Below, in pieces: positions 3,510 through 61,961 of a stretch of DNA of 64,000 nt (within the stretch, counting starts at the first letter, position 1; each line of letters begins with the position of its first letter). Under the pieces are notes generated by a model that ran no database searches, was not told the origin of the DNA, and was given only the letters and a program-made list of their open reading frames with translations. The position numbers and the translations under genes are program-made. Origin of the DNA: Eledone cirrhosa (lineage: Eukaryota). Location of the stretch: NCBI GenBank assembly GCA_964016885.1, contig OZ024750.1, forward strand, positions 3,906,001 to 3,970,000, given 5' to 3'.

Positions 3510-4403
3510 CAAAAACTTAAAATCTTCCAGCATAATTTTATATAAGAACCTTACATTAACTTACTATCTTATTAATGAAAAAATTAATAATTTTAGAAAA
3601 TTCATCCAAATCCTTAATTAATTAATCAAAATACAATGTATGTAATGAGAAATATGGTCACAAAAGACTTAAACATTATAGTTGAATTCTTCATCTTCAC
3701 AATTCTCATTCCATTAGTCAGGTGATGGAATTGAACTTACTTGAAATATTCTAAAGACAGAACTGAAGGAGTAGAGATAAGAGGGAATTGATGAATTTGT
3801 TTTACATCTCGGGAAATGTAACAATATCGATTGAAAGAATAGCTGAAACTTATGTACTTCTATAATGATTTCAGAAAGATGACAATGTTAAAACATTTCT
3901 CTCAGTAACAGAATGCCACACTTATTATGCATTAGTGTTGTAGAATATTGTAACTCTTTCCACTGACCTTCTTCATATAACCACTTTATTCTGTCTTTAA
4001 AATGGTAAAATACATTCTTGACGAAGATCTCTCCAATGAATATAGGAAGAAGTTTAAAGTGATTCTTATCCATGATTTTTATCAATGATGTAAGTGAAAG
4101 AATTAAAATGAGAAACCAAAATGAAGTTGCAGGTATACACCTCTGTTCTACAGCATCTGTTTAATAATAATGGTTTCTGATTTAGGCACAAAGCCAGCAA
4201 TTTTTGGGGAGGGAAAATTAAAGGGTTACATTATTAAATATGTAAAGCTTTATCTGGTCTTGCAGAGGAAAGAGTGCAAAAGGAAGACAAATTAAGTCAG
4301 TTGATCCCCCTTTTTAGTATTCTGTAAAATGAAAGGAAACAGCAGAGAAAAACAAATTATACTTCTTATTGTGTGTGTATGTGCGAGAGATATATGTGTA
4401 TAT

Positions 4404-4620
4404 ATAGTCCCGAGTTGTGTTGGGGGATAACCACAGTTAAAAAAGATACTCAATATATTGGTAGAGTTTAGGCATCTTTTATTATATATATAGAAACAAC
4501 TTATACAAGACTAGAACTGTTTCATTCAAATGAAACAGTTCTAGTCCTTGTAAGGAATTGGTTGTTTATTAAATATGGAATATTCTTTCCTAGTCTATCT
4601 CTACCAATAAGTTGTTGACT
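4404..4620. mobile_element. Family C fold-back PLE-like remnant
   Basis: acaagactagaactgtttcatt-ca-aatgaaacagttctagtccttgt palindrome; same motif as hammerheads 6891 and 61283; left flank matches the reverse complement of 61340-61410. Confidence 0.7.
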
Positions 4621-6189
4621 TTAAAAAAAACAGCCCCAGATGGATGAGGAGTTTACCATAACTTCTGTGACATTTACACATTTGCAAGTGAATGTTCTCA
4701 GCAACACTAATCATTCTCTACAGTGAATTATGGTGGCTAATTTTTTCTTTTTTTTTCTCCCAGCCTGAGAAACTAAGATTAATAAGTCTGAGTGACTTGT
4801 TGATGTAAAACACAGTTCTGTGATTAGGTTTTAATCTAATATGTTGGTACCTTAGCAATAATTCAACAAAGAAATAATATAAAACAAAGAGAGGCATTTG
4901 TGTTTTAGATAACTTCATTTTGTTTTGTTTTTTATTATAACAAAAGAATGACACTTAGACATTTTGGAATGAAGAGAAAAGAGAATTAAGGGAAAGAAAA
5001 AAGAGTGACATCCAAATTATTCATTGTCATCACCAGATTAATGTTCACTTTTTTTTACATAATGATATGTCAGTACAGTACCATACCTCTAGTCATCGAT
5101 ATCATGTGACTTTTATGAATTATTACAGATAAAAAGGTATATCTTTCTGAGATGATATAAACTGAGAGAGAGAGATTTCAAACTGCTGATATCATTTGCA
5201 AAGGCTCTTGATTAAGAAGTAAATTTGCAGATAATAAATATGACTTCTAAATTATATATTATAGTATATAAAGAATTTATTTAAGTTAAATAAAAATGTA
5301 TATTCAGCTTCAATATATTAGAGAATTAAATTTTAAAGACATTTAAAGTGGTACCAGTTATGGCTGTACTCACAACATTGCTTTAAGTAAAATGTCAAAA
5401 ATAAACCTCAATCACTGAGTGAGTGATGCAAGGAGACACTGCATCTTTCAAAACTTCAATGCTTCTATGCTTCCAGAAATTCAACAACCCTCCCCCTCCA
5501 AGCACATGCATGCATGTGTGTGTGTGTGTGTGTATGTGTCATGACTCATACACTGTTCACTTTCCTGATGATTGTACATTATCATATGTACTATACATAT
5601 ACCTTTGATGAGTTGTAGTGCACCTGAGCACTGTACACAAATATTTTCATTATTATTATTATAGCAATTGTTTAAAGAGTCTAACAATAATACATAATAA
5701 AGTGTCATGCTTTCTCTGTTAATTCCAATACTTTCTTTTTCTGTATGTTTGACTAAATATTAAATTCTTTATTATTTGTCATTTAATTTTATACTAGGAA
5801 TATATTTGAATATTTTGAAATAAAATAATTCTTCCATTAAATGCCTAAACCTGTTGATATTTAACTACCTGAAAACGTGATTCTATAATCAATATTCTTT
5901 GTTTTAGAATATCTATATTAAACTAAAAACCTTCCATAATAATTGTATGTAAGAACCTTTTTTAAGTTATGTTCCAACCACCAGCTTACTAATGAGAAAG
6001 TTAGGTATATTACTAAATCCCTCCAAATTCTAGATTACTTTAAAGAATATCTGAAAATCATTGGCAGTATTCCTTAGAAATATGGTAACAAAAGGGTTCG
6101 TTAATTTTTCTTCTAATAATATGTTGCATGAACAAATACTAACATTCATCTCCCCATTTAGATTATGCAGACACATCTAAAGTATATGT

Positions 6190-6532
6190 ATCATCATCAT
6201 CATCATCATCATTTTACGTCCACTTTTCCCTGCTTGCAAGGGTGGGACGGGAACTGATTTTGGCTTGATTTCTACAGCTGGATGCCCTTCCTAACACCAA
6301 CCTCATTTACAGTGAGTGCTGGGTGCTTTTTTGCTCTGGCACCTCCACGACCACTTTACAGTGGAATGATAGGGACCCCAGTCCCTATCATCTCATTTCT
6401 ACAGCTGAGTAAACTGGAGCAATGTAGAATAAAGTGTCTTGCTCAAGGAAACAACACATCACCCGGTCTGAGAATTGAACTCAGAACCTTTCGATTGCAA
6501 GGCCAATGCTCTAACCACTAAGCCATATGCCA
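6190..6532 (-). mobile_element. tRNA-derived SINE with CORE-like centre and RTE-type 3' tail
   Basis: Head ggcatatggcttagtggttagagc...gagttcaattc; ccttgagcaagacacttt; 3' end nearly identical to RTE 3' end at 57863-57915; (GAT)n tail. Confidence 0.8.
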
Positions 6533-6841: not shown

Positions 6842-6872
<31 letters not shown>

Positions 6873-6890
6873 AGTTTTAATATAGATGAG

Positions 6891-6937
6891 ATTCTACAGG
6901 ACTAGAACTGTTTCATTCTTTAGAAATCATCAGGAAT
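6891..6937 (-). ncRNA. Type I hammerhead ribozyme motif (family C)
   Basis: attc-CTGATGA-tttctaaagaat-GAA-ACAGttctagtcCTGT-A-gaat; GUA site. Confidence 0.8.
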
Positions 6938-7019
6938 ATATATATATATAAACTTTGGGAGGGTCATGTTGCCAATATATATATATATCAACAATTCTTC
7001 TCTTGATAATGGATGGTAA

Positions 7020-7094: not shown

Positions 7095-7322
7095 ATATAT
7101 ATATATTTGTGTCCTTGAGCAAGACACATTATTTCACATTGCTCCTTCTGCCAGGAGTTGCGACCAGTAGATAGTACAAGCAATAGAAAGACTAATTGAA
7201 ACATTGTTTCTTTTGGTCTGATTTGATGAGGTCCACCCCACCCAGGATCTGGGATCAGAGCAAGAATGAGCAATATATATATATATATACAATATATACA
7301 ATATATATATATATATACAATG

Positions 7323-7723
7323 AATGGAAACTATATTTATAAAACCATATTTATTTTATTATACATATTTCAAGGGCAACCAAGGCAAATTATGGTGCAC
7401 TTTCATCAGATAAAATACAGATTTGTTTTATAAATAAGTATTGACATACCCGGAAAAAAGACAACGTTAACGGTTGGAGCTTCCTGGATAGTGGAGATGT
7501 CAATATTTATTTATAAAACAAATCTGTATTTTATCTGATGAAAGCGCACCATAATTTGCATTGGTTGCTCTTGAAATATGTATAATAAAATAAATATGGT
7601 TTTATAAATATAGTTTCCATTTATTAATATATTGTGTATTTACTCCACTAACCAGTTAAGTGCTTTATATCAGTTATAAAAATTTTTAAGCTTGGTGAAT
7701 CCCAACAAATTAAATATAACCTC

Positions 7724-7727
<4 letters not shown>
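7323..7727 (+). mobile_element. Family A PLE-like pLTR remnant with inverted 5' copy
   Basis: About 125-bp inverted arms 7323-7447 and 7497-7621, plus a unique tail; flanked by (TA)n; homologous to 11414, 30721 and 34151. Confidence 0.8.
7527..7592 (+). ncRNA. Type I hammerhead motif (family A); mirror copy at 7352-7417 on minus
   Basis: tattttat-CTGATGA-aagcgcacca...tggttgctctt-GAA-ATATGTAT-A-ataaaata. Confidence 0.8.
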
Positions 7728-11197: not shown

Positions 11198-11392
11198 ATA
11201 GGAACGAGTAGGACCCCGACGGCTGAGCTCAAGCCGTTTCGACGGCTAATCTGGTCCAGAATTAGCCGTCGAAACGGCTTGAGCTCAGCCGTCGGGGTCC
11301 TACTCGTTCCTATTACCCACTCTACTACCCTAAGTATTGAGTACTTTGGTGCGTTATGGTCCACCTGGTTCCTTACCACATTTCCTTCGTTA
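11198..11392 (+). mobile_element. Family B fold-back element
   Basis: Perfect 53-bp arms 11198-11250 and 11261-11313; right arm carries GAAACGGC...GCCGTC; conserved about 80-bp tail. Confidence 0.8.
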
Positions 11393-11413: not shown

Positions 11414-11830
11414 ATACGATATATTAACAAATGGAAACTATATTTATAAAACCATATTTATTTCATTATACATATTTCAAGGACACCAAGTTAAATTATG
11501 GTGTGCTTTCATCAGAGATAAAATATAATATAGATCAGTTTTATAAATAAATATTGACATACCCTTAAAATAATGCGACATTTCTGTTGGATGCTCTGGA
11601 GCTTCCAACAGAAATGGTCGCATTCTTTTAAGGGTATGTCAATATTTATTTATAAAACTGATCTATATTATATTTTATCTGATGAAAGCACACCATAATT
11701 TAACTTGGTGTCCTTGAAATATGTATAATGAAATAAATATGGTTTTATAAATATAGTTTCCATTTGTTAATATATCGTATTTTTACTCCAATAATTTGTT
11801 GAGTGCTTTATATCAGTTATAAAATATTTT
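11414..11830 (+). mobile_element. Family A fold-back PLE-like remnant
   Basis: Near-perfect about 178-bp arms 11414-11591 and 11604-11780 with a 12-nt loop. Confidence 0.85.
11671..11735 (+). ncRNA. Type I hammerhead motif (family A)
   Basis: tattttat-CTGATGA-aagcacacca...tggtgtcctt-GAA-ATATGTAT-A-atgaaata. Confidence 0.8.
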
Positions 11831-11902
11831 ATTCTTCTACAATATTACTCACCTTCTATATATATATATGTATATGTATATATATGTATATACATGTGTG
11901 TG

Positions 11903-12511: not shown

Positions 12512-13509
12512 TGTGGTTAACCAACCCCATCAGTTCCAGACGATAGCCGACGCTGGGGCATGAAAGCAGGTGTAGTCCAAAAGCCGTTTATTCTAGACAC
12601 GCAACCAACATTTATTTTCCTCGCAGATTTAACTTTTAGAAACGAAACCTGATTAAAGAAACACCAATACAGAGTCAGTGGCTATCCAGCTGGGTACCAG
12701 ATGTCCAGTGGCCAAATCTCTGCTCCGGTTAACATCCCCTGTCCAGCTGGGTACCAGATGTCCAGTGGCCAAACCTCTGCTCCGGTTAACATCCCCTGTC
12801 CAGCTGAGTACCAGATGTCCAGTGGCCAAACCTCTGCTCCGGTTAACATCCCCTGTCCAGCTGAGTACCAGATGTCCAGTGGCCAAATCTCTGCTCCGGT
12901 TAACATCCCCTGTTCAGCTGGGTACCAGATGTCCAGTGGCCAAATCTCTGCTCCGGTTAACATCCCCTGTCCAGCTGGGTACCAGATGTCCAGTGGCCAA
13001 ATCTCTGCTCCGGTTAACATCCCCTGTCCAGCTGGGTACCAGATGTCCAGTGGCCAAACCTCTGATCCGGTTAACATCCCCTGTCCAGCTGGGTACCAGA
13101 TGTCCAGTGGTCAAATCTCTGCTCCGGTTAACATCCCCTGTCCAGCTGGGTACTAGATGTCCAGTGGCCAAACCTCTGCTCCGGTTAACATCCCCTGTCC
13201 AGCTGGGTACCAGATGTCCAGTGGCCAAATCTCTGCTCCGGTTAACATCCCCTGTCCAGCTGGGTACCAGATGTCCAGTGGCCAAACCTCTGCTCTGTTT
13301 GACATCCCGACTGAAGTATACTAGAGTCAATAAGATGACTACTGTAACTGGAACTAAAGGGGTGCTGTGTTGTTCATGGCCTTTCCCCATGACGTAAGTG
13401 AAATAATTAGAAACGGAAATGAAAACTTGATCGGAAATTGAGTTCTTCCAGGAACTTAACCATATGTTCTACACCGCTTGCTGCCACCCCCCACACAGAC
13501 TAAACCACA
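12512..13509 (-). mobile_element. Probable LTR containing a minisatellite
   Basis: TGTGGTT...AACCACA inverted termini; minus-strand AATAAA near 12590; PBS-like gtgcgacccc adjacent on minus; no TSD. Confidence 0.45.
12685..13307. repeat. 57-bp minisatellite, about 11 copies
   Basis: Unit ccagctgggtaccagatgtccagtggccaaa(t/c)ctctgctccggttaacatcccctgt. Confidence 0.97.
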
Positions 13510-13977: not shown

Positions 13978-14195
13978 TGACTTAATACAAGATGCAAATC
14001 CACTTTGCACTAGAGCACTGCTTATAGTCGGACCTCCGTCGTTTTCGACGACGAATGCTACAGTATATATATATATATATATATACTGGAGCATTCGTCG
14101 TCGAAATCCAGTATATATATATATGTGTGTGTAAATAAATATATATATATATACTTATTTATATCTATACACACACACACACACACACACATATA

Positions 14196-18923: not shown

Positions 18924-19118
18924 CACCGGTGGATTGGCTGTATCAGTAGAGAGTCGGACGCCATGCATCGCAGCATAGAGTTACGGCCCTTTACAGTCTG
19001 AGTTCAAAAACTGCCGAGTTTAACTTTGCCTTTCATCCTTACGGGGTCCATAAAATAAAGTACCAGTAATGCACTGAGATAATTGCTGGCCTTGTGCCAA
19101 AAGTAGAAACAATTATAA
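18924..19118 (+). mobile_element. Abundant tRNA-derived SINE (Meta-domain-like core)
   Basis: ggattggc...gagttcaaa...aactttgcctttcatccttacggggtc.ataaaataaagtaccag...ccttgtgccaaaagtagaaacaattat. Confidence 0.85.
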
Positions 19119-19299
19119 TTCAATGGGAAAGTAGTTCTGTTCAGCGAACAACTGAAAACGTATCAACGTATTAGACGAGAGATGAATTCACTTTTATTCT
19201 TTGAAAATGTTTGTAAATTGCAGGTGTGGCTACTTTACAATACCTGATAGTAGTCAACAGCGTGGCATACATCCTGTACACGACCTAACGAGAAACCTG

Positions 19300-21033: not shown

Positions 21034-21065
21034 TTCTGATGAAGGACTAGCGTCCGAAACGTTAA
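21034..21065 (+). ncRNA. Minimal hammerhead motif (family E)
   Basis: tt-CTGATGA-aggac tagc gtcc-GAA-ACGT-T-aa; helix I is only 2 bp; tail to 21153 shared with 29536-29650. Confidence 0.65.
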
Positions 21066-22284: not shown

Positions 22285-22880
22285 CATCATCACCATCATC
22301 ATCATCATCATCATCTGGTGGTCTCAACCGAAATGAACTCAACAATTGATCTCCACGAGGGTCTGTTGTTCATTGCCGTTGCTAAATCCTGGATTTCAAC
22401 ACCAGAATCTCTGGAGATGTCATCGGAGTAGGAGAGCTTGCGCCCCCTGTTATTAGAGACTGCTTGTCTAGAATCTCTGGAGATGACATCGGGCTAGAAG
22501 AGCTTGCGCCCCCTGTTATTAGAGACTGCTTGTCTAGAATCTCTGGAGATGACATCGGGGTAGAAGAGCTTGCGACCCCTGTTATTAGAGACTGCTTGTC
22601 TAGAATCTCTGGAGATGACATCGGGCTAGAAGAGCTTGCGCCCCCTGTTATTAGAGACTGCTTGTCTAGAATCTCTGGAGATGACATCGGGGTAGAAGAG
22701 CTTGCGACCCCTGTTATTAGAGACTGCTTGTCTAGAATCTCTGGAGATGACATCGGGCTAGAAGAGCTTGCGCCCCCTGTTATTAGAGACTGCTTGTCTA
22801 GAATCTCTGGAGATGACATCGGGGTAGAAGAGCTTGCGACCCCTGTTATTAGTGACTGTTTGTGGTTTCCAAAGCGCTAA
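22285..22880 (-). mobile_element. RTE LINE 3' end with internal tandem amplification
   Basis: LWKPQTVTNNRGRKLFYPDVISRDS...GVEIQDLATAMNNRPSWRSIV, then a (GAT)n tail. Confidence 0.75.
22404..22860. repeat. 66-bp minisatellite, 7 copies, alternating A/B variants
   Basis: Units start every 66 bp from 22404 to 22800. Confidence 0.97.
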
Positions 22881-29084: not shown

Positions 29085-29351
29085 GTCTTTAGTGAATTGT
29101 GAATTATTTCACGGAAAGAGCCAATATTTTCTGAGAATAGATAGCGTTACCAGGTAAAACAGAGATATCCTGCAGCTGTCATAATCGCTTGGTCACCGAC
29201 CCCCGACCCTCTGGTCGCTAGTAATCATCAGCTGGTATATCTAACAGCGGATCATATTCAACTATATAACATTTTCTTGAAGATCAAGTTGAGGCGCGAG
29301 TGTATTAGAATTCAGATGCAAAAGATATCGCTTACTGTAACTATATATATA

Positions 29352-29522
29352 TAGTTACAGTTCGTTTACAAACCAAACAATTTAAGGTTTAAGAATTTAA
29401 GTTAATAAATGCCTTAAACCTTAAATTCTTTGGTTTGTAAACAAACTGTAACTAAATAAAAGCTCTGCATGATCTCATCATTGCATTGAGCGAAAAAACA
29501 CATAGCAAATGAGTTTACTCTC
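29352..29522 (+). mobile_element. Fold-back remnant with degenerate hammerhead
   Basis: About 48-bp arms 29352-29399 and 29406-29454; gct-CTGcATGA-tctca...tgagc-GAAA...agc. Confidence 0.55.
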
Positions 29523-29535
29523 ATATATATATATA

Positions 29536-29646
29536 AAGGACTAGCGTCCGAAACGCTAATACCCTCTTTCTGCTATTTCAAGCGTTAAACTAATATATTC
29601 CTTCCATATACTGTACCGATTTTGTTGTTATTTCTGTTCACCTTTT

Positions 29647-30609: not shown

Positions 30610-30722
30610 GTATGTGTGTATATATATATATATGTATATATATACATATATGTATGTAAATATATATATATGTATGTATATATATATATATATACATATA
30701 TAAATATATATAAATATATATG

Positions 30723-30787
30723 TATTTTATCTGATGAAGGCATACCATATTTTAATTTGGTATCCCTGAAATATGTATAGTGAAATA
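30723..30787 (+). ncRNA. Type I hammerhead motif (family A; element 30721-30920)
   Basis: tattttat-CTGATGA-aggcatacca...tggtatccct-GAA-ATATGTAT-A-gtgaaata. Confidence 0.8.
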
Positions 30788-30915
30788 AATATGGTTTTAT
30801 AAATATAGTTTCCATTTATTTAATATCGTATATCTACTCCAAAAACTTGTCGAGTGTTTTATATCAGTTATAAAATATTTACTTGTTGTATCCCAACAAT
30901 TTTAAATAGAACTTT

Positions 30916-30949
<34 letters not shown>

Positions 30950-30952
<3 letters not shown>

Positions 30953-31450
30953 ATGAAATGACAGGAGGCTGGATTTGTGTAAATCCTTGAAAGGTTTATT
31001 ATACTATGATCATTTCAATGACCGGGTTCCGTATGAATCCGGTGATATCATCAGGTATTCGAAATATAATACGTGAATGTAATAGGTAAAATCCATGGGG
31101 CTGAAAAACGAGACCCGAGGGCGACCGCTATTCTGTTCCTTCAACCTCAGCCGGTCGCCCTGGATTTTACCTATTACATTCACGTATTATATTTCGAATA
31201 CCTGATGATATCACCGGATTCATACGGAACCCGGTCATTGAAATGATCATAGTATAATAAACCTTTCAAGGATTTACACAAATCCAGCCTCCTGTCATTT
31301 CATTATAATATTTAACTCCGTAATAGCACCACCAACTACAAAAACAAAGACGGTTGAACTGCTTTACGTTGAGTACTCTCTATATTATTGCATTACGATT
31401 GACCATACGGAATAGACCAGCTCTATACAGTGGTGAACCTCAAACCTGAA
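30950..31450 (+). mobile_element. Family F fold-back PLE-like remnant
   Basis: Perfect about 146-bp arms 30950-31095 and 31161-31306, plus tail; (TA)n on both sides. Confidence 0.85.
31198..31255 (+). ncRNA. Type I hammerhead motif (mirror copy in the left arm)
   Basis: atac-CTGATGA-tatcaccgg...ccggtcatt-GAA-ATGATCAT-A-gtat. Confidence 0.8.
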
Positions 31451-31643: not shown

Positions 31644-31650
<7 letters not shown>

Positions 31651-31834
31651 CACATGAAACAATCACAGGGGATAATTTGTAATGGTGAAGTATATTTCTT
31701 TAATGAAATATATACAAGGAAGATCAATCATTTTAAAAGGTATCTATATTTGAAGTTCTAGTTAAACTTTAATTAGGTACCTGTGATTACACACTTTACA
31801 AATTATCCCCTGTGATTGTTTCATGTGTTTATTT
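31644..31834. repeat. 39-bp inverted repeat
   Basis: aaataaacacatgaaacaatcacaggggataatttgtaa and its reverse complement at 31796-31834. Confidence 0.85.
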
Positions 31835-33244: not shown

Positions 33245-33246
33245 AA

Positions 33247-33413
33247 CAAAGGTGTGGTAAGATACCAGGTGGACCATAACGCACCAGAGTACTCGATACT
33301 TAGGGTACTAGAGTGGGTAATAGGAAAAGAGTCTGGACACCGACGGCTGAGCTCCGGCCGTTTCGACAGCTAGATATCCGAACTACCTCAGCTGCCGGGG
33401 TCCTGACTCTTTT

Positions 33414-33417
<4 letters not shown>
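33247..33417 (-). mobile_element. Family B element with partial arm deletion
   Basis: Tail and arms homologous to 2138-2320. Confidence 0.75.
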
Positions 33418-34150: not shown

Positions 34151-34155
<5 letters not shown>

Positions 34156-34316
34156 ATATTAACAAATGGAAACTATATTGTAAAACCATATTTATTTTAT
34201 TATACATATTTCAAGGGCCACCAAGGCAAATTATGGTGCGCTTTCATCAGATAAAATACAATACAGATTAGTTTTATAAATAAATATTTGTATCCAAACA
34301 AATTAAATATAACCTC

Positions 34317-34320
<4 letters not shown>
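34151..34320. mobile_element. Family A remnant: inverted arm (hammerhead 34193-34258 on minus) joined to tail end
   Basis: Left arm as in 7323-7440, then caaattaaatataacctctgca as in 7706-7727. Confidence 0.75.
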
Positions 34321-41045: not shown

Positions 41046-41344
41046 GAAGTGCGGCAACAGCCGAAATATACGATAAAGTTATATCTGTAAAAATACATTA
41101 CAGGTAATGGAGACTATAAATTAACCACTGGGGAGGAAACCAATTTGTTCAACACCGCCCGTGATCAGAGGGGCGGTGTTGTACGAATTTCATCCGACTC
41201 CAGTGGTTAATGTACTCAACTTACGGCATTGTTTTTCATAGTAAAAACGCGTTAAAGTTACTAACTTTAAATTCAAAACTTCCTACCCATTCAGCGGTTC
41301 TAAAAATAGATTGTATGGATATATATATAGTAATAATAATAAAT

Positions 41345-41561: not shown

Positions 41562-41694
41562 GTCTGAACGTCGAAACGGCCGGAGATCAGCCATCGGGGT
41601 CCTGGCTCTTTTTATATTACCCACTCTACTACCCAAAGTATTGAGTACTCTGGTGCGTTATGGTCCACCGGGTATCTCACCACACTCTCTTTGT

Positions 41695-41738
<44 letters not shown>

Positions 41739-41842
41739 TAGGGTGTGGTATAAAAACAGGTAGTCCATAACCCACTAGAGTACTCGATACTTGCGATAGT
41801 AGAGTGGGTAATATGAAAAGATTCAGGACCCCGATGGCTGTA
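41559..41842. mobile_element. Two family B fragments facing each other (41559-41697 on +, 41740-41842 on -)
   Basis: Tail homology to 11310-11392. Confidence 0.7.
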
Positions 41843-41969
41843 TATGAAAATTGTGTTTCCTTGAAAATGATTTTGGAAAAGATATCAGGTGTGCTTCTAT
41901 TGGCTTTCTGCAGGTGTATTAAATACACCCACCTATTAGATATATATAAACACTTTAAAACAGTTTAGT

Positions 41970-42269
41970 CTGGAGAAGGCGTTTCCCCGGAGGACGGCAA
42001 GGGAGACGCGCTGGAAAAGCCACTCCAACTCGCGGGGCTCACACCTGCGGCTGGCCAGCTCAGCGCCTATGGTGGTGAGTAAGGAGGTAGCCCTGGGGCC
42101 GAGGACACCAGAAGTCTCCACTGCCAGGGGAACGACCGCAATCCTGTCGGACAGCGACCGGTATTTGAGGAGTTTGGCCCCCTCAGCCCGACGTGCAGCA
42201 GAACCTGGGTCAGTCGCAGACTGCACCTGGTTGCAGCTGCAGAAAGTGTCGGTGCAAGTGGCATCCCAG
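41970..42269 (-). mobile_element. CRE-like REL endonuclease fragment flanked by a 20-bp direct repeat
   Basis: WDATCTDTF...AEGAKLLKYRSL...PLAVETSGVLG...LFQRVSLAVLRGNA; acactttaaaacagtttagt at 41950-41969 and 42270-42289. Confidence 0.9.
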
Positions 42270-43072
42270 ACACTTTAAAACAGTTTAGTGTTGTAGAAGT
42301 GGGCTGGGGGAGGAGGAAGGCGGGATTTGTTTCGTATCAAAAGGGTTAAATAGTTCCTATTTGTATACATTTGGTATTTTTACTTGCTATTAAAACAGGT
42401 ACATTTCTCCAAAGCCCCCTTTCGTGGCACCTAATAACCTAATACCCCTTAAAACAATAAGGGTTCCGTTTGTTTGTTTTTTATGATTGCTTTTTCATTT
42501 TATTTATTTTATCTTTGAGCTTTTGAGTAACTTTTTTTTTCTTTTATCTTAGACATTTCATCTGCATCCTGGTGTCTGCTTACTTGATTGCATCTTTCAA
42601 TTTACTTACACACACACACACACACACACACACTCTCTCTCTCTCCCTGTCACTCTCTCTCTTTCTCTGTCTCTCTCTCGCTCTGGCTCTATCTATCTAT
42701 CTATCTATCTATCTCTATCTCTCCCCCCTCTCTCTCTCTCTTTCTCTGTTCTTTTTTCTTCCTTCTCTCTCTCTCTCACTCTCTCAATTTCTATGGCCCC
42801 ACCCACCTCACCCCCCTCTCTGTCTCAATAATTTTATCTTCTTCGTCTTTTTATTCTATTTTTTTCCCATTGTTCCTTCTTTTTTGTTTATTTCCATGGT
42901 AACCAACTATCCTATTTCTCCCATTCTGAAATTATTTTCTGTTTAGTCTTTTCTCGTTTATGTGTATGCATGTGTGTATGTGTTTGTGTGTGTGTATGTG
43001 TATGCATGTGTGTATGTGTTTGTGTGTGTGTGTGTGTGTGTGTATGTCTATGCATGTGTCTATGTGTTTGTG

Positions 43073-44141: not shown

Positions 44142-44147
44142 GTATAG

Positions 44148-44207
44148 TTAGGATCTAGCTGTCGAAACGGCCGGAGCTCAGCCGTCGGGGTCCTGACTCT
44201 TTTCCTA
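44148..44207. mobile_element. Family B single arm
   Basis: ggatctagctgtcgaaacggccggagctcagccgtcggggtcctgactcttttcc-(TA)n. Confidence 0.7.
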
Positions 44208-49049: not shown

Positions 49050-49061
49050 CTATATATATAT

Positions 49062-49240
49062 AGGAAAAGTGTCAGGATCTCGACGGCTGAGCTCCGGCCC
49101 TTTTGACAGCTAGATCCGAACGGTGGGAGCTCAGCCGTCAGGGTCCTGACTCTTTTCCTATTACCCACTCTACTACCCTAAGTATTGAGTACTTTGGTGC
49201 GTTATGGTCCACCTGGTTTCTTACCACTCTTTCTTTGTTT
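49062..49240 (+). mobile_element. Family B element (centre deleted)
   Basis: Arms and tail homologous to 11198-11392. Confidence 0.75.
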
Positions 49241-50589: not shown

Positions 50590-50792
50590 ATATGATGGTC
50601 GGTTGAAAAGTTCATAGGTCTACCAAGACACTCATGGAATGATCAAATGAGGTTTATTTTTCAACATAGTCCATGGAAAGAAACAATGAAGTTATTAATA
50701 AGAAGAATTAAAAATAATGTATGCAAGATTTCACATCTCTAGCATATCAATCCTTCATAGTCAGCCTATGAACCTTTCAGCCTACCCTCGCA
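50590..50792. mobile_element. mariner-like MITE (partial second copy at 50470-50585)
   Basis: TIRs ggtcggttgaaaagttcatagg and cctatgaacctttcagcctaccctcg. Confidence 0.75.
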
Positions 50793-50808
50793 CATATTGA
50801 AAAGTTAC

Positions 50809-51214
50809 CTGGTGTTGTGCTGCTTATTCGATATTTCGAGACGCTCCTTCCAAATGTATATTTTGGTGGGGTTGGTAATTTAAGACCATAGCCTGAATCG
50901 AGACGATAGGTTGCTGGACCTGGTGATAGATGAGGAATGCGGTATTTAGGGCGGGCTCCTATATAGGTGTTAGGACAGGTAAATTTGCCATCCCGATAGA
51001 CTGTTGGATTATGTAAATTGTATTTTGGTCCTGGTGTAATGAACTTAGGAATTTCTTCAAGTCTTCTACCAATGTAGCATGCTGGTTTCTTTGGATAAAG
51101 ACTGTTCGGGTCATGATTCTCAAATCCTAGTAATGGTCGCAAAGCATAAATAGGTCCTGGACTTGTGAACATGGCTGATATAGGGCCACGAGGAATGGTC
51201 GGCTGGAACGTCAT
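50809..51214 (-). CDS. ODF3: ODF3/CIMAP1-like (SHIPPO1 PGP repeats), coding exon 1
   Basis: MTFQPTIPRGPISAMFTSPGPIYALRPLLGFENHD...TPGPKY...SPGPATY...TTP; acceptor tttag at 51240, donor G|gtaact at 50809; phase 1. Confidence 0.93.
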
Positions 51215-51722
51215 TTTGGGGAAGACTTGAAATAGAACCTAAATAAAAAAAAAAAAATTTTTAATCAGATATATAACATCGTTATAGATAAAAAAAAAAT
51301 TTTTATTGCAGGTGCTTCGTTTCTTATGAGGGCACCTAACACAGTGGTGAGGGAATAAAAATCAGCCATCAGATCGTAGGTTCAGTTTCTGGACAGAGCG
51401 GTTCGTTGTTGTGTTTTTCAACAGGACAATTCTTTTCATGATATCACTGGAGATCCTATCATTATAACACACCATTGGAAACTCCCAATGAGACAAGAAT
51501 CTTTCCGGAGGCCAGCTAAACCTACATAGGTGTGAGCTGGGAATTTCATATTAATTCCTCATTCTTAGATATTAATTCCTTTACCGTTATTTCTCAATAT
51601 GCAAGTTTCTAGTAGTGAAACTAATGAGGGCTTTCTAAAGAAGAAGAAGAAGAAGAAGAAGAAGAAGAAGAATCGCAAATAAATGGATTATATTAACATA
51701 TTCAAATAAAATATTAACTTAC

Positions 51723-51894: not shown

Positions 51895-52318
51895 CTCACT
51901 ACTGTTTACTTTACTTGTAACAGAACTCTATAGACAATGAACACAACCACAAGGATATGGTTCGAACGTGGAAGAGCCGAACTCCGACTGTCATCGCCTC
52001 CATCTCTCTCAGCCTCTCCATCTCTCTGTATGGTGAGCAAATGGGGTCCCATGTGCTGGCCTCCCCACAGCCCCGGCGGACAGAATGGAGAAGGCGTTTC
52101 CCCAGAGGAGGATGGTAAAGGGAGATGCGCTGGAAGAGCCATTCCAACTCGCGAGGCTCACACCTGCGGCTGGACAGCTCAGCGTCTATGGTGGTGAGTA
52201 GAGAGATAACCCTAGGGCCAAGTCTCCACTGCCAAGGGTACAACTTCAAACCTATCGCAGAGCGACCGGTACTTGGAGAGTTTGGCCTCCTCAGCCCGAC
52301 GTGCAGCAGAACCTGGGT
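51895..52318 (-). mobile_element. CRE-like non-LTR element 3' fragment with UTR
   Basis: SRRCEPRELEWLFQRISL...GNAFSILSAG; close to 41970-42269; frameshifted. Confidence 0.85.
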
Positions 52319-52939
52319 TATTACATCAGGAAATTGTCTTATAAACCAACAGTATTTAATCAATCACTATAGTGTCAGACTGACAAATAGATTGATCTAC
52401 TGATTATATAATCACCACAGTTATATTTACATAATTAAACATTTTATACTGCCATGTTGACATAGAACGAGCATTTTAACTAAACTATCGAAGAATAGCG
52501 AATTTCATCTTTCTAATCTATTTCTATATCACTACACTGCTTGGTGTATTTTGAAATAAAGACCTTCAATTACAGATAATTAGATATAATTGTTATGTGC
52601 AGACATTTATAGTTTCATTGCAGATAGATATTGTGTTCGTGTGTATGGTATGACATTTTGAATCAGACAAATAAATATGTTCCTTTAATGTTAGATTCAC
52701 TTGTAGACATATCTGAAGTGGAGTTGGGACGAATAGAATAATTTTATTATTGATGTTTCTTTTGTTTATGATGCTCAACGCATTTAACGGATGAGGTATC
52801 GGCATATTTTACAGTATAATAATATATTATACATTGAATATAATCGATATTATTGATCAAAAGTTAAATGCTACCACCAATTCTTAATACGCAATTTTCC
52901 GAACAATAAGTCCAGACTTCCAAAAATGCAATACTGAAA

Positions 52940-53684: not shown

Positions 53685-53689
<5 letters not shown>

Positions 53690-53873
53690 AAAAAGTATGA
53701 CCCCGACGGCAGAGCTCAAACCGTTTCGACGGCTATTTCTGGAAATAGCCGTCGAAATGGCTTGAGCTCTGCCGTCGGGGTCATACTTTTTCCTATTACC
53801 CACTCTACTAGCCTAAGTATTGAGTACTCTGGTGCGTTATGGTCCATCGGGTCCCTTACCACAATTCCTTTGT

Positions 53874-54065: not shown

Positions 54066-54606
54066 ATTACACTATTTAGATATATTCCCAATATCTTATT
54101 TGATATATTATAATATATCACTAAACCATTTGATATTTGGGGAGACCGTTTGAACTTTTGAATGTTTAACATATTACAATTTATTTTTGATAAAAAAAAT
54201 GTTTTTTTAAATGTTTATATAGATTTTGAATATAATAATTACCTTTGTTGAACCTGCAGACGAAATTGATTTACCCGGATCGGATTACTTTATAGATGCG
54301 AAATTTTATTCGAAAGGTCTGCCTTAATAAAAAGAAATCAATTTCTTTTCTTGTTTCGATTATGGTGCCTGTCTTTTGTGACGTTTGTATGTTATGACGT
54401 TTTATACCACGTGCTGATTTTAGTACGAGTATATTGGTTTCTTACAAAATAGGTAACAGGCCAGAAATTTAGAGGAAGCGAGCAATCGATTATATAGACA
54501 CCCCGATACTTGACCGATATTTTATCGACATTGAAAGTGTAAATAGCAAAGCCGACTGCTATTTCGAGTAGGTGAAGTTACCGCTTAGGGTTAACCTCGT
54601 TGGCTT

Positions 54607-55575
54607 CCAAATAATAGGACGGATATACTCTCGGATCTGAAATAATAAGAGGGATATACTCTCGGATCCGAAATAATAAGAGGGATATACTCTCGGATCC
54701 GAAATAATAAGAGGGATATACTCTCGGATCCGAAATAATAAGAGGGGTATACTCTCGGATCCGAAATAATAGGAGGCATATACTCTCGAATCCGAAATAA
54801 TAGGAGGCATATACTCTCGGATCCGAAATAATAGGAGGCATATACTCTCGGATCCCAAATAATAGGAGGGATATACTCTCGGATCCGAAATAATAGGAGG
54901 GATATACTCTCGGATCCGAAATAATAGGAGGCATATACTCTCGAATCCGAAATAATAGGAGGCATATACTCTCGGATCCGAAATAATAGGAGGCATATAC
55001 TCTCGGATCCCAAATAATAGGAGGGATATACTCTCGGATCCCAAATAATAGGAGGGATATACTCTCGGATCCCAAATAATAGGAGGGATATACTCTCGGA
55101 TCCCAAATAATAAGAGGGATATACTCTCGGATCCGAAATAATAGGAGGGATATACTCTCGGATCCCAAATAATAAGAGGGATATACTCTCGGATCCGAAA
55201 TAATAGGAGGGATATACTCTCGGATCCGAAATAATAGGAGGGATATACTCTCGAATCCCAAATAATAGGAGGGATATACTCTCGGATCCCAAATAATAAG
55301 AGGGATATACTCTCGAATCCGAAATAATAAGAGGGGTATACTCTCGGATCCGAAATAATAGGAGGGATATACTCTCGGATCCCAAATAATAAGAGGGATA
55401 TACTCTCGGATCCCAAATAATAAGAGGGATATACTCTCGGATCCGAAATAATAAGAGGGATATACTCTCGGATCCCAAATAATAGGAGGGATATACTCTC
55501 GGATCCCAAATAATAGGAGGGATATACTCTCGGATCCCAAATAATAAGAGGGATATACTCTCGGCTCCTAAATAA
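54607..55575. repeat. 31-bp minisatellite, about 31 copies
   Basis: Unit cc(g/c)aaataata(g/a)gagg(g/c)atatactctcg(g/a)at. Confidence 0.97.
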
Positions 55576-55795
55576 TGATTTCTACTATACGCATAAGGCC
55601 AGTCATTTGGGGGAAAGGGAGAGTCGATTAAATCTACCCCAGTACGTTACTGGTACTTTATTTTATCGACCCCGTAAGGATGAAAGGCAAAGTTAACCTC
55701 GGCAGGATTTGAACTCAGACCATAAAGGGACATAACTCTATGCTGCAAAGCATGGTGTCCGACTCTCAACCGATACTGCCAATCCACCACCCTTG
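55572..55795 (-). mobile_element. tRNA-derived SINE copy inserted at the array end
   Basis: Full head to tail; one more partial array unit follows at 55796-55820. Confidence 0.85.
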
Positions 55796-56224
55796 TCGGA
55801 TCCCAAATAATAGGAAGGGTTGGAATAAACCGGGGGGATCATCGGTAATTTTCTTAGACATTAGTCGTTAGATTTAGATATTGAAACTCTAACTGATTCT
55901 GTCTATTTTATAACGTATGGGGTTTCTTATCTACTTTGTTTGGTCATGTATAATGTTTTTTAATGTATAAAGAAAATTCATTGTCGCAGGAATGCAACCA
56001 CTTAAAATACAATTTCGCCGGAGATGGATTAGCAAAATTTAATAAGCGAGGGAGTTGAACTAAGAACGGTGGTCAGGAGTTTGTGAAAAATGAATAAGCT
56101 AAGCGGGATTAGGGGACGATTATTCGACATCCGAGACTATGTTCTTTTCTCTCTCTCGCTCGAGTGCCTCATTTATCTTGGGCATAAATATAAAGTTATG
56201 TATGTATGTATGTATGCATGCATA

Positions 56225-56618
56225 TAATTTTGAGAACAGAGGCATAGAGCACGAGAAGATCAAACGGGATGAGCGTAAGCAATGCCCTGGTGTATCTCTA
56301 GAAACGATCGGTGTCTCCATTGAATTGGTGTGCCCTGAGTGTGGAAAGATTTGTTTGAGCAAATCTGATCTCAGGAGCCACAGTCGCAGCCATATTCAAA
56401 GAGAACCAGTGAACTATGATCTCCACGCCATTGTGAAGGTCCACAGGCAACCTGATGCAAGACCTGAGGCCAGGGAGATCCATAGTTATTGTCAGTGTGT
56501 GATGGAGTGCAAGTCTCTGGCAAGCTTGAAAAGTCATATCCAAGCATCACACATCTGAATTTGACAATCGATTGCAATACTCTTTGCGTGAGATTGCAGC
56601 CATCATAAATGTGTTAAG
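56225..56618 (+). mobile_element. RTE-group LINE 3' end with C2H2-like fingers
   Basis: FENRGIEHEKIKRDERK...CPECGKICLSKSDLRSH...KSLASLKSHI; (ATGT)n tail. Confidence 0.7.
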
Positions 56619-57841: not shown

Positions 57842-58383
57842 TCATCATCATCATCATCATCATCATAATCATCATTTTACGTCCGCTTTTCCCTGCTTGC
57901 AAGGGTGGGACGGGTCCTATTCAGTACAGCATCTCTCCACTTGTCACGGTTCTTCGTCGTCTCCTCGGTGAGTTTCAGCCAACTGAGGTCAGCTCTCACC
58001 AATTCCACCCATGTTTTTCGAGGTCTTCCTCCACAGCGTCTTCCTTCTACTGGCATTTCTTGGCACTTCTTTACCCAGCGGTCATCCTCCATGCGCATCA
58101 CATGTCCATACCATCCCAGTCTTCTCTCCTGCACACCACAACTTATCGCTCTTATACACAGGTTCTCTCTCAACTCGTCTATGCTGGGTCGTTCACACAC
58201 ATTAACATTGCACATCCAACGGAGCATGCTTGCCTCATTTCTCTCCAGCCGTCGCATATCCTCTGCAGTTGCTGCCCATGTCTCACTACCATGCAGCATC
58301 GCGCATCTCACACAGGCATCATATAACCGTCATTTCGTACACAGGAAGAAACCCTTCTTTGTCAACAGAGGAAGCAGCTCCCT
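57841..58383 (-). mobile_element. RTE LINE 3' fragment
   Basis: MLHGSETWA...LERNEASMLRWMC...RRLGWYGHVMRM...GRPRKTW; (GAT)n tail. Confidence 0.92.
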
Positions 58384-60437: not shown

Positions 60438-60634
60438 GTAATAGGAGTAAGTAAGACCCCGACGGCTGAGCTCAAGCCGTTTCGACGGCTAATTCAGTAC
60501 AGAATTAGCCGTCGAAACGGCTTGAGCTCAGCCGTCGGGGTCTTACTTACTCCTATTACCCACTCTACTACCCTAAGTATTGAGTACTTTGGTGCGTTAT
60601 GGTCCACCTGGTTCCTTACCACTTTTCCCTCGCT
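60438..60634 (+). mobile_element. Family B fold-back element
   Basis: Perfect about 58-bp arms within 60438-60559, plus tail. Confidence 0.8.
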
Positions 60635-61154: not shown

Positions 61155-61333
<179 letters not shown>

Positions 61334-61961
61334 TTTCTATATTAAATATTTATACTCTGCTTTGTATTGAGTATCTTACTTACTGTGGTTACCCCCGATT
61401 GAACGCGGGATAAACATATATATATATATATCTGTTGAGACGTATACAACAACCCTTTATGGTTACTTTCCCTCCTAAAACAGGAATTTCTCTGGTGGTC
61501 CCCATGACAAGCTTCCCGCTAACCATCGGATCTTTTGGGCGGGAACGTTGTGTGGCTGGCTGCCCTTCCTGATACCAGCACTTTAGGTCGCCTCATTCTA
61601 GACTCGGGATTACGATGTACCTATCTAAACCTTTTGTACACAGCCCTCTGTTCTAACATAATCTATGTGTTTATTTCATGTTTGAATAATGGAATTATTG
61701 GTTACAGGTTTCCAGCAGGTTGACTTTCTGTTGTCGAGAGAGATCTGCAACTTGAGATGAAGGAAGTGTCAACAACTCGCGGGGGCGAAGGTTGGGTCTT
61801 TTTTTTACAGAATTAAATATACCCTCACATTCATTCTATGGTCTTCGAAGTTAAAACAGCGACATGGAAAATTTTATTTTCCGAGGGATGCTTTCTAGAT
61901 GAAGGGAGATTAAAAAAATATACTTAACGTAACAAACTACCCCCAAAAAATAATACATTAA

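Follow-up and report, generated by a model that had tools for sequence, protein, structure and literature searches.

In Penelope-like (PLE) retrotransposons a copy that is inverted and 5'-truncated frequently lies adjacent at the 5' end, a tail of 30-40 bp is optional and insertions are biased towards microsatellites, as the relevant passages of PMC8557442 describe. For the EN+ elements Pen2a_Av, Pen2_Av and Pen3a_Av of Adineta vaga, whose inverted pseudo-LTRs (pLTRs) correspond to the general scheme in PMC8557442, the passages of PMC3846280 on pLTR structure describe palindromes of 18 and 38 bp at the pLTR 5' ends and inverted junctions that are mostly head-to-head, and self-priming is proposed there. 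The junctions are not placed relative to hammerhead helices in the relevant passages of either paper. In its sections on PLE hammerheads, PMC4209133 describes type I ribozymes with a palindromic helix III, present mostly as solo fragments and in some cases as opposite-strand pairs, and the corresponding parts of PMC11167929 report both-strand extension, two start sites and an insertion in vitro that is independent of cleavage. Among titles and abstracts, with most subscription papers outside the coverage, no study mapping PLE inversion junctions onto hammerhead helices was found.

We analysed a locus in a window of 64,000 nucleotides (the whole stretch of DNA under analysis) in which positions 4408-4552 consist of a hammerhead-bearing repeat, assigned to family C, and a short inverted copy of the repeat, the two meeting head-to-head. 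The features of the locus are as follows.

4408..4527, minus strand: long arm, running from helix II (3' strand, GAAT, 4527-4524) through GAAA and helix III to the 3' tail
4527..4528, no strand: symmetry centre with spacer CA
4529..4552, plus strand: short inverted arm, AAT-GAAAC-helix III-GTA, without CUGAUGA
4553..4620, no strand: probable flank that resembles the long arm in patches (words of 7-11 nt), not a faithful second arm

As far as the cited passages describe the EN+ PLE pseudo-LTRs, the locus resembles them in its head-to-head 5'-truncated inverted copy, its unequal arms, its AT-rich or microsatellite target and the self-priming proposed for such structures, and its 18-bp arms compare with junction palindromes of 18-38 bp (PMC3846280). 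Unlike them, it is without an ORF, is only about 145 bp long and has its junction inside the hammerhead, which removes CUGAUGA. Family C shares with the solo metazoan PLE hammerheads, in the account of them given in PMC4209133, the CUGAUGA box, one unpaired base 5' of helix II, GAAA, a loop III that is quasi-palindromic, variability in helix I and loop II, dispersal in thousands of copies and some opposite-strand pairs. It differs from that account in a helix III of 4 bp with an 8-nt loop and in a helix II that opens with U-A and not G-C, and 4408-4552 itself differs in being two 3' halves with no 5' box. Non-LTR retrozymes (bioRxiv 10.64898/2026.07.22.740005), as characterised in the portions relevant here, are likewise non-coding, carry a type I hammerhead and are proposed to be PLE-derived, but are defined by tandem units with full hammerheads.

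The arms of the palindrome are perfect over 18 nt each (4509-4526 and 4529-4546) and are separated by the 2 nt CA; the symmetry extends outwards over 4504-4552 with 1 indel and 0 substitutions in 23 aligned columns, and a separate alignment gave 92% over 50 columns. Perfect arms reached 10 nt at most in 20 shuffles of 4200-6200, compared with the 18 observed, and the DNA fold of the palindrome had z = -8.0, with equally stable folds in 0/200 shuffles. When up to 3 mismatches were allowed, the 20-mer GAATGAAACAGTTCTAGTCC matched four places in the window (4508-4527 minus, 4528-4547 plus, 6899-6918 minus and 61304-61323 plus; chance expectation 0). The symmetry centre lies at the edge between loop II and helix II, 4 nt from GAAA, and CTGATGA (the CUGANGA box) was absent from both strands of 4408-4552 in the sequence and in pattern and descriptor scans. 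An earlier sequence-only reading of this DNA had described a palindrome centred at helix II with the catalytic core gone, and both points were confirmed: the centre at 4527-4528 maps to helix II/loop II. The predicted fold of 4408-4552 is one long hairpin.

The long arm has a quasi-palindromic loop in helix III, a predicted cleavage site after 4504 and a variable 3' strand of helix I; its outer end is a TA-rich microsatellite and it is 74% alike to 61304-61410 over 120 columns. The short arm, whose outer end is not a (TA)n run, agrees exactly with 61305-61324 over 20 nt, and 61340 is matched by a 10-mer at 4567, so that a decayed continuation of this arm may reach to about 4576. The structure is thus asymmetric, with 120 nt in the long arm vs about 24-48 nt in the short one, reliable homology ending near 4552. 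No target-site duplication was visible in the flanks of 4408-4552.

Two copies of family C in the window retain the catalytic core.

61281..61410, plus strand: core-intact copy with type I hammerhead and 3' tail, between TA runs
61289-61295, plus strand: core of this copy
61296-61307, plus strand: helix II of this copy
61308-61311, plus strand: GAAA of this copy
to 61326, plus strand: helix III of this copy
6869..6940, minus strand: other core-intact copy, with its core at 6933-6927 and a helix I shortened to 4 bp

The copy at 61281 has a helix I of 8 bp, a predicted cleavage site after 61327 and a predicted fold in the form of a three-way junction (z = 0.10). The second copy has TA repeats at both ends and a short 3' end, and is 86% alike to 61275-61354. 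The sequence-only reading had given intact hammerheads at 61283(+) and 6891(-); CTGATGA was indeed present, at 61289(+) and 6933(-), while 6891 lies just past the cleavage site of a copy with a 4-bp helix I. Both copies have the layout CTGATGA, TTTC-NNNN-GAAT, GAA, ACAG-TTCTAGTC-CTGT, A, with a helix II of 3-4 bp and a helix III of 4 bp, and both agree with the type I descriptor in their CUGANGA and GAAA boxes, UH cleavage site and helix order. Their Rfam matches were partial (Hammerhead_3, 10.7 and 15.7 bits vs a gathering cut-off of 48.5) and their fold energies were no better than those of shuffles (z 0.10 and -0.14); they are candidates by descriptor, with predicted cleavage. The descriptor gave 8 type I hammerhead candidates in the window, two of them family C, and a looser pattern gave 7 that were partly different. 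One tRNA-like match was the sole match in the whole window at the Rfam gathering score, and among the matches listed (150 of 538) noise from microsatellites or hairpins prevailed. Family C copies in the window are solo or inverted, and no tandem array of them was found there. The intact copies and the palindrome had been put forward as a before/after pair; with 74% likeness to the long arm, and in a family of thousands of sequence records, the intact copies are paralogues and not donors.

The abundance of family C was estimated by aligning 4 of 13 public runs to 4396-4695 at 80% likeness: X1 (contigs), X11 (RAD reads), X5 (contigs of a second organism) and X6 (a third organism). X1 gave 2096 contigs of family C, X11 2502 reads, X5 1749 contigs and X6 41 records; these counts are of records and not copy numbers, RAD reads sampling few loci at uneven depth. 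It should be noted that contig assembly tends to break at palindromes. The depth of records covers the entire long arm, with the tail reaching 4408 and a step at 4488 where most records leave the reference. Loose ends carrying the reverse complement of CTGATGA occurred at 4535 and 4527 in at least 791 and 494 reads of X11 (1285 together), at least 100 and 46 contigs of X1 (146) and at least 127 and 56 contigs of X5 (183). Core-intact copies thus dominate family C.

Head-to-head joints that keep both cores were found, among the readable ones, in 142 and 52 reads of X11 (194; 6 and 2 start positions), 4 and 3 contigs of X1 and 5 contigs of X5. By our interpretation of the joint table they are centred just upstream of CTGATGA with spacers of 0-5 nt, and a centre just 5' of CUGAUGA with both cores kept is the commonest readable inversion in family C. 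Strand-change joints at 4527/4527, 4528/4533 and 4535/4535 (31 reads and 5 contigs) were ambiguous; they were dropped as cases of helix-II fold-back, given that the reference clips intact copies there and the intervening letters are not all readable, and may instead be inversions with both cores kept. Copies that share the 4527/4528 centre would align straight through with no visible joint, and as a rough estimate they are bounded at about 116 of the 2502 X11 reads (a right-arm depth of 310 less the 194 second pieces), a figure that includes ambiguous intact reads. In the comparison of intact and fold-back copies on these four runs, certain recurrence of the core-lost centre was confined to one contig of X5. 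Over 4500-4679, a span that takes in the centre and the unique flank, this contig shows 23 differences and 4 gaps. Its locus is apparently orthologous, in which case it represents the same event and not a second one, and the core-lost inversion may be a single event. Because centre and flank are shared by both organisms, the inversion appears from sequence to be old and to predate the split from the second organism.

Another X5 contig has a joint from 4548 to 4504, apparently tail-to-tail and with the predicted cleavage site at its centre. In pattern scans of metagenome contigs both the fold-back and the intact motif had 0 matches; one pattern match in a viral contig (L001) had no CTGATGA upstream and was taken as chance.

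To the right of the short arm, past 4555, family depth was absent from X1, X11 and X6 and consisted of one contig in X5. The likeness of 4553-4620 to the long arm was equalled by 44/1958 control windows. A right arm reaching 4620 was rejected: its p value of 0.0035 in shuffling rose to 0.022 against real windows, it had no family depth, and most of the shared words are broken in the letters of the second organism. Within this segment 4590-4616 is a patchwork of three short long-arm words, two of them joined via an ATA overlap, whose resemblance to the long arm is closer here than it is in the second organism, either by chance or by local templated copying.

Further hammerhead-related families and copies were found in the window.

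7319-7726, 11415-11831, 30715-30918 and 34152-34319: family A, long and short arms with two opposite-strand intact cores
30947-31309: family D, arms of about 150 bp with 1 difference in 149 columns and an asymmetric centre
2118-2323, 11198-11390, 53685-53873, 60438-60632, 49060-49240 and 33245-33415: family B
44147-44205, 41569-41697 and 41742-41840: partial copies of family B

Families A (7319, 11415) and D (30947) form head-to-head palindromes with centres 62-81 nt upstream of CTGATGA and both cores kept. Family A also includes solo or centre-deleted copies, and each arm of family D has CTGATGA with a hammerhead-like 3' part. Family B consists of the 3' half of a hammerhead (GAAAC, a 6-bp helix III and GTC), and AGCCGTC stands both before GAAAC and at the cleavage site, suggesting that the family may carry an internal duplication. 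Four family B palindromes have their centres about 13-16 nt upstream of the core GAAAC, each at a different place, and the short arms stop at CCTAT before (TA)n in 6/7 of those aligned. Every complete B copy is palindromic and no core-intact copy (CTGANGA) was found in the window; with no such parent, the family C locus lends little support to the mechanism that the sequence-only reading had proposed for family B. Family B is possibly a self-propagating palindromic family and may descend from one palindromic master.

Apart from these families the window is AT-rich and microsatellite-laden, with many short dispersed repeats, and presumably resembles an octopus genome. Two family B copies stand tail-to-tail over a single (TA)n run at 41569-41840, and solo short copies occur at 44147 (B) and 6933 (C). 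Solo hammerhead-like motifs of further families were seen at 21036+, 32926+, 48015-, 48871- and 26790-, and 29533-29646 is a 5'-truncated relative of 21036 that begins just past the core box. Palindromic elements without a hammerhead box lie at 29348-29458, 31644-31834, 41117-41214 and 14043-14106, tandem arrays at 12682-13308 (57 bp), 22404-22863 (66 bp) and 54587-55576 (31 bp), a tRNA-like match, likely a SINE head, at 6468-6525 (minus), and a repeat of ~190 bp with >10 copies in the window at about 18930-19120. A 153-aa frame with SPGP/TPGP repeats at 50780-51238 (minus) had no Pfam match at E 0.01 and presumably resembles ODF3/SHIPPO proteins. The frames at 57880-58329 (minus), 41939-42274 (minus), 51914-52363 (minus) and 56103-56555 (plus) include a C2H2 zinc-finger fragment below the cut-off; some, with no Pfam match, we take to be probable C-terminal fragments of retroelements.

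The position at which the strand turned was examined from the length of the centre. The gap from GTTTC to GAAAC is 8 nt, whereas a native helix II snap-back that keeps loop II predicts 12. Either of two registers would yield 8 nt: TTTC paired with the GAAA of the catalytic core, or a joint without spacer where loop II borders helix II. The former presupposes a parent whose loop II was ATTT, which may be compatible with the reads. The centre CA is likely either a CG since decayed, from a TTC|GAA joint with zero spacer, or a remnant of loop II ATTT. Spacers of 2 nt are TG or CA in all 3/3 such cases among 8 hammerhead-family palindromes (4527-4528, 11597-11598 and 53740-53741); the background share of TG/CA is 0.18 and its cube 0.006, a post hoc figure. 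This is as expected if CG-centred perfect palindromes had decayed or been desymmetrised, and agrees with the zero-spacer register. Differences between arms were enriched at CpG (5/58 vs 10/639 columns), an enrichment biased upward since the context was taken from either arm. In 8/8 elements of the window the arms are near-identical (0-5 differences in 23-180 columns), and in family B the arms within a copy share copy-specific letters, yet arms of different copies are 76-94% alike. Therefore one arm was copied from the other or both came from the same template. The junction position itself varies by family and, in family C, by copy.

These observations are best explained by a single-template snap-back during one PLE retrotransposition event, in which a 5'-truncated cDNA turned back on itself, and we hold this origin with moderate confidence. 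An autonomous PLE, none of which was found in the window, would nick a TA-rich target; reverse transcription would start at the 3' tail, pass the cleavage site, helix III and GAAA, and stop in helix II before CUGAUGA. The cDNA end would re-prime on itself via a few complementary bases and be copied back to about the cleavage site, whereupon the strand would be joined to the other target end. The 8-nt centre would result from a zero-spacer C-G joint at the edge of loop II and helix II that later decayed to CA, or from TTTC-GAAA pairing in a parent with loop ATTT, and the stop in helix II would be one of several inversion places for family C, not a privileged one. The near-identity of arms within elements, against 76-94% between B copies, fits copying from one template. 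The self-priming of the rotifer elements, as the relevant passage of PMC3846280 words it, occurs on antisense RNA, which differs from the cDNA snap-back proposed here. Two points speak against a snap-back: a spacer of 0-2 nt is impossible from a plain hairpin with a loop of at least 3 bases, and the predicted snap-backs are weak (helix II about 0, helix III -1.0 and helix I -1.2 kcal/mol, from two parents only).

PLE-type traits of family C are the type I hammerhead in a terminal repeat (by descriptor), the 5' truncation with a head-to-head inverted copy, the long and short 3' ends, and the TA runs bordering the long arm and the copies at 61281 and 6933. The 5 of 100 listed window frames that were scanned gave a zinc finger only and no reverse transcriptase or GIY-YIG ORF of a PLE linked to family C, and the PLE origin therefore rests on anatomy. 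A MITE or other DNA transposon was rejected given that the arms are unequal (120 vs about 24-48 nt) and most family C copies are non-palindromic, and a non-LTR retrozyme given that the window has no tandem family C units with full hammerheads. We infer that the element is of PLE origin, was truncated in helix II, re-primed and was joined near the cleavage site, with loss of ribozyme activity; its product is predicted to be a non-cleaving DNA or RNA hairpin with no role of its own.

The fixed ends of short arms (CCTAT in 6/7 family B arms; the departure of most C records at 4488), the solo short copies and the common near-zero spacers are also what would be seen if a dimeric PLE protein had started cDNA synthesis on both target strands, with one start site distal and the other internal, and the converging cDNA ends had been joined via short self-complementary words, leaving a long and a short arm with no spacer. 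The anole PLE protein, in the parts of PMC11167929 that concern it, nicks and extends both strands, uses two internal start sites and is a predicted dimer. Such twin priming is nevertheless rather unlikely here, in that copy-specific letters are present in both arms, which is unlike the product of two RNAs of a diverse family unless one RNA templates both cDNAs.

The sequence-only reading had proposed that helix II and loop II are a specific fold-back hotspot which repeatedly deletes the catalytic core in independent families. The distance of only 4 nt between the 4527/4528 centre and GAAA, and the four B centres about 13-16 nt upstream of GAAAC, are in line with it, and the three opposite-strand joints near helix II (31 reads, 5 contigs) could be further cases, but these joints coincide with the place at which intact copies are clipped by the reference, and family B may stem from one palindromic master. 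Furthermore, 8 nt were seen where 12 are predicted, helix II primes no better than helices I and III, and readable inversions lie mostly upstream of the core, with the A and D centres 62-81 nt upstream. Inverted duplication stands as the best reading of the fold-back, while the loop-II-specific mechanism is not supported in family C as a rule and we regard it as improbable.

The type I hammerhead forms a nested quasi-palindrome, the inverted short arm stops close to helix I, and the 12 nt of helix II stay in register on the element strand if loop II was ATTT; a template switch in DNA after insertion (quasi-palindrome correction) could therefore have swapped CUGAUGA in an intact copy for the complement of the 3' half. 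Against this, families A, B and D show the long and short head-to-head layout too, their centres lying outside every hammerhead helix, and the centre is already present in the second organism, with no intact ancestral allele seen, all of which makes a switch of this kind very unlikely. Palindromes are a known class of artefact, and X1 has no contig over 4556-4695 (a hole that proves nothing), but the arms differ, the centre has decayed and the X5 contig of an independent organism spans centre and right flank with 23 differences, so that an assembly or library fold-back artefact is almost inconceivable.

A broader idea, which we consider unlikely, is that the hammerhead helices set the turning points of the PLE reverse transcriptase and that turning at helix II is a repeated route to ribozyme-dead, still-spreading palindromic elements such as family B. 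If the helices did set the turning, inversion junctions would be a map of the joining step, and zero-spacer CG-centred joints would mark two cDNAs, made by a dimeric reverse transcriptase from a single RNA, that had been joined end to end.

Taken together, 4408-4552 is genuine and old, an inverted copy, predicted to be ribozyme-dead, from a probable PLE-derived family, which may already be catalogued in repeat databases, and head-to-head palindromic junctions have been described for PLEs before. How PLE inverted ends are formed is still open according to the passages of PMC8557442 and PMC11167929 that address it. For this question the locus is one data point, with no loop-II rule and no evident function, in a count that the genome makes possible: its thousands of short, hammerhead-landmarked copies have countable junctions and spacers that could tell snap-back from twin priming.
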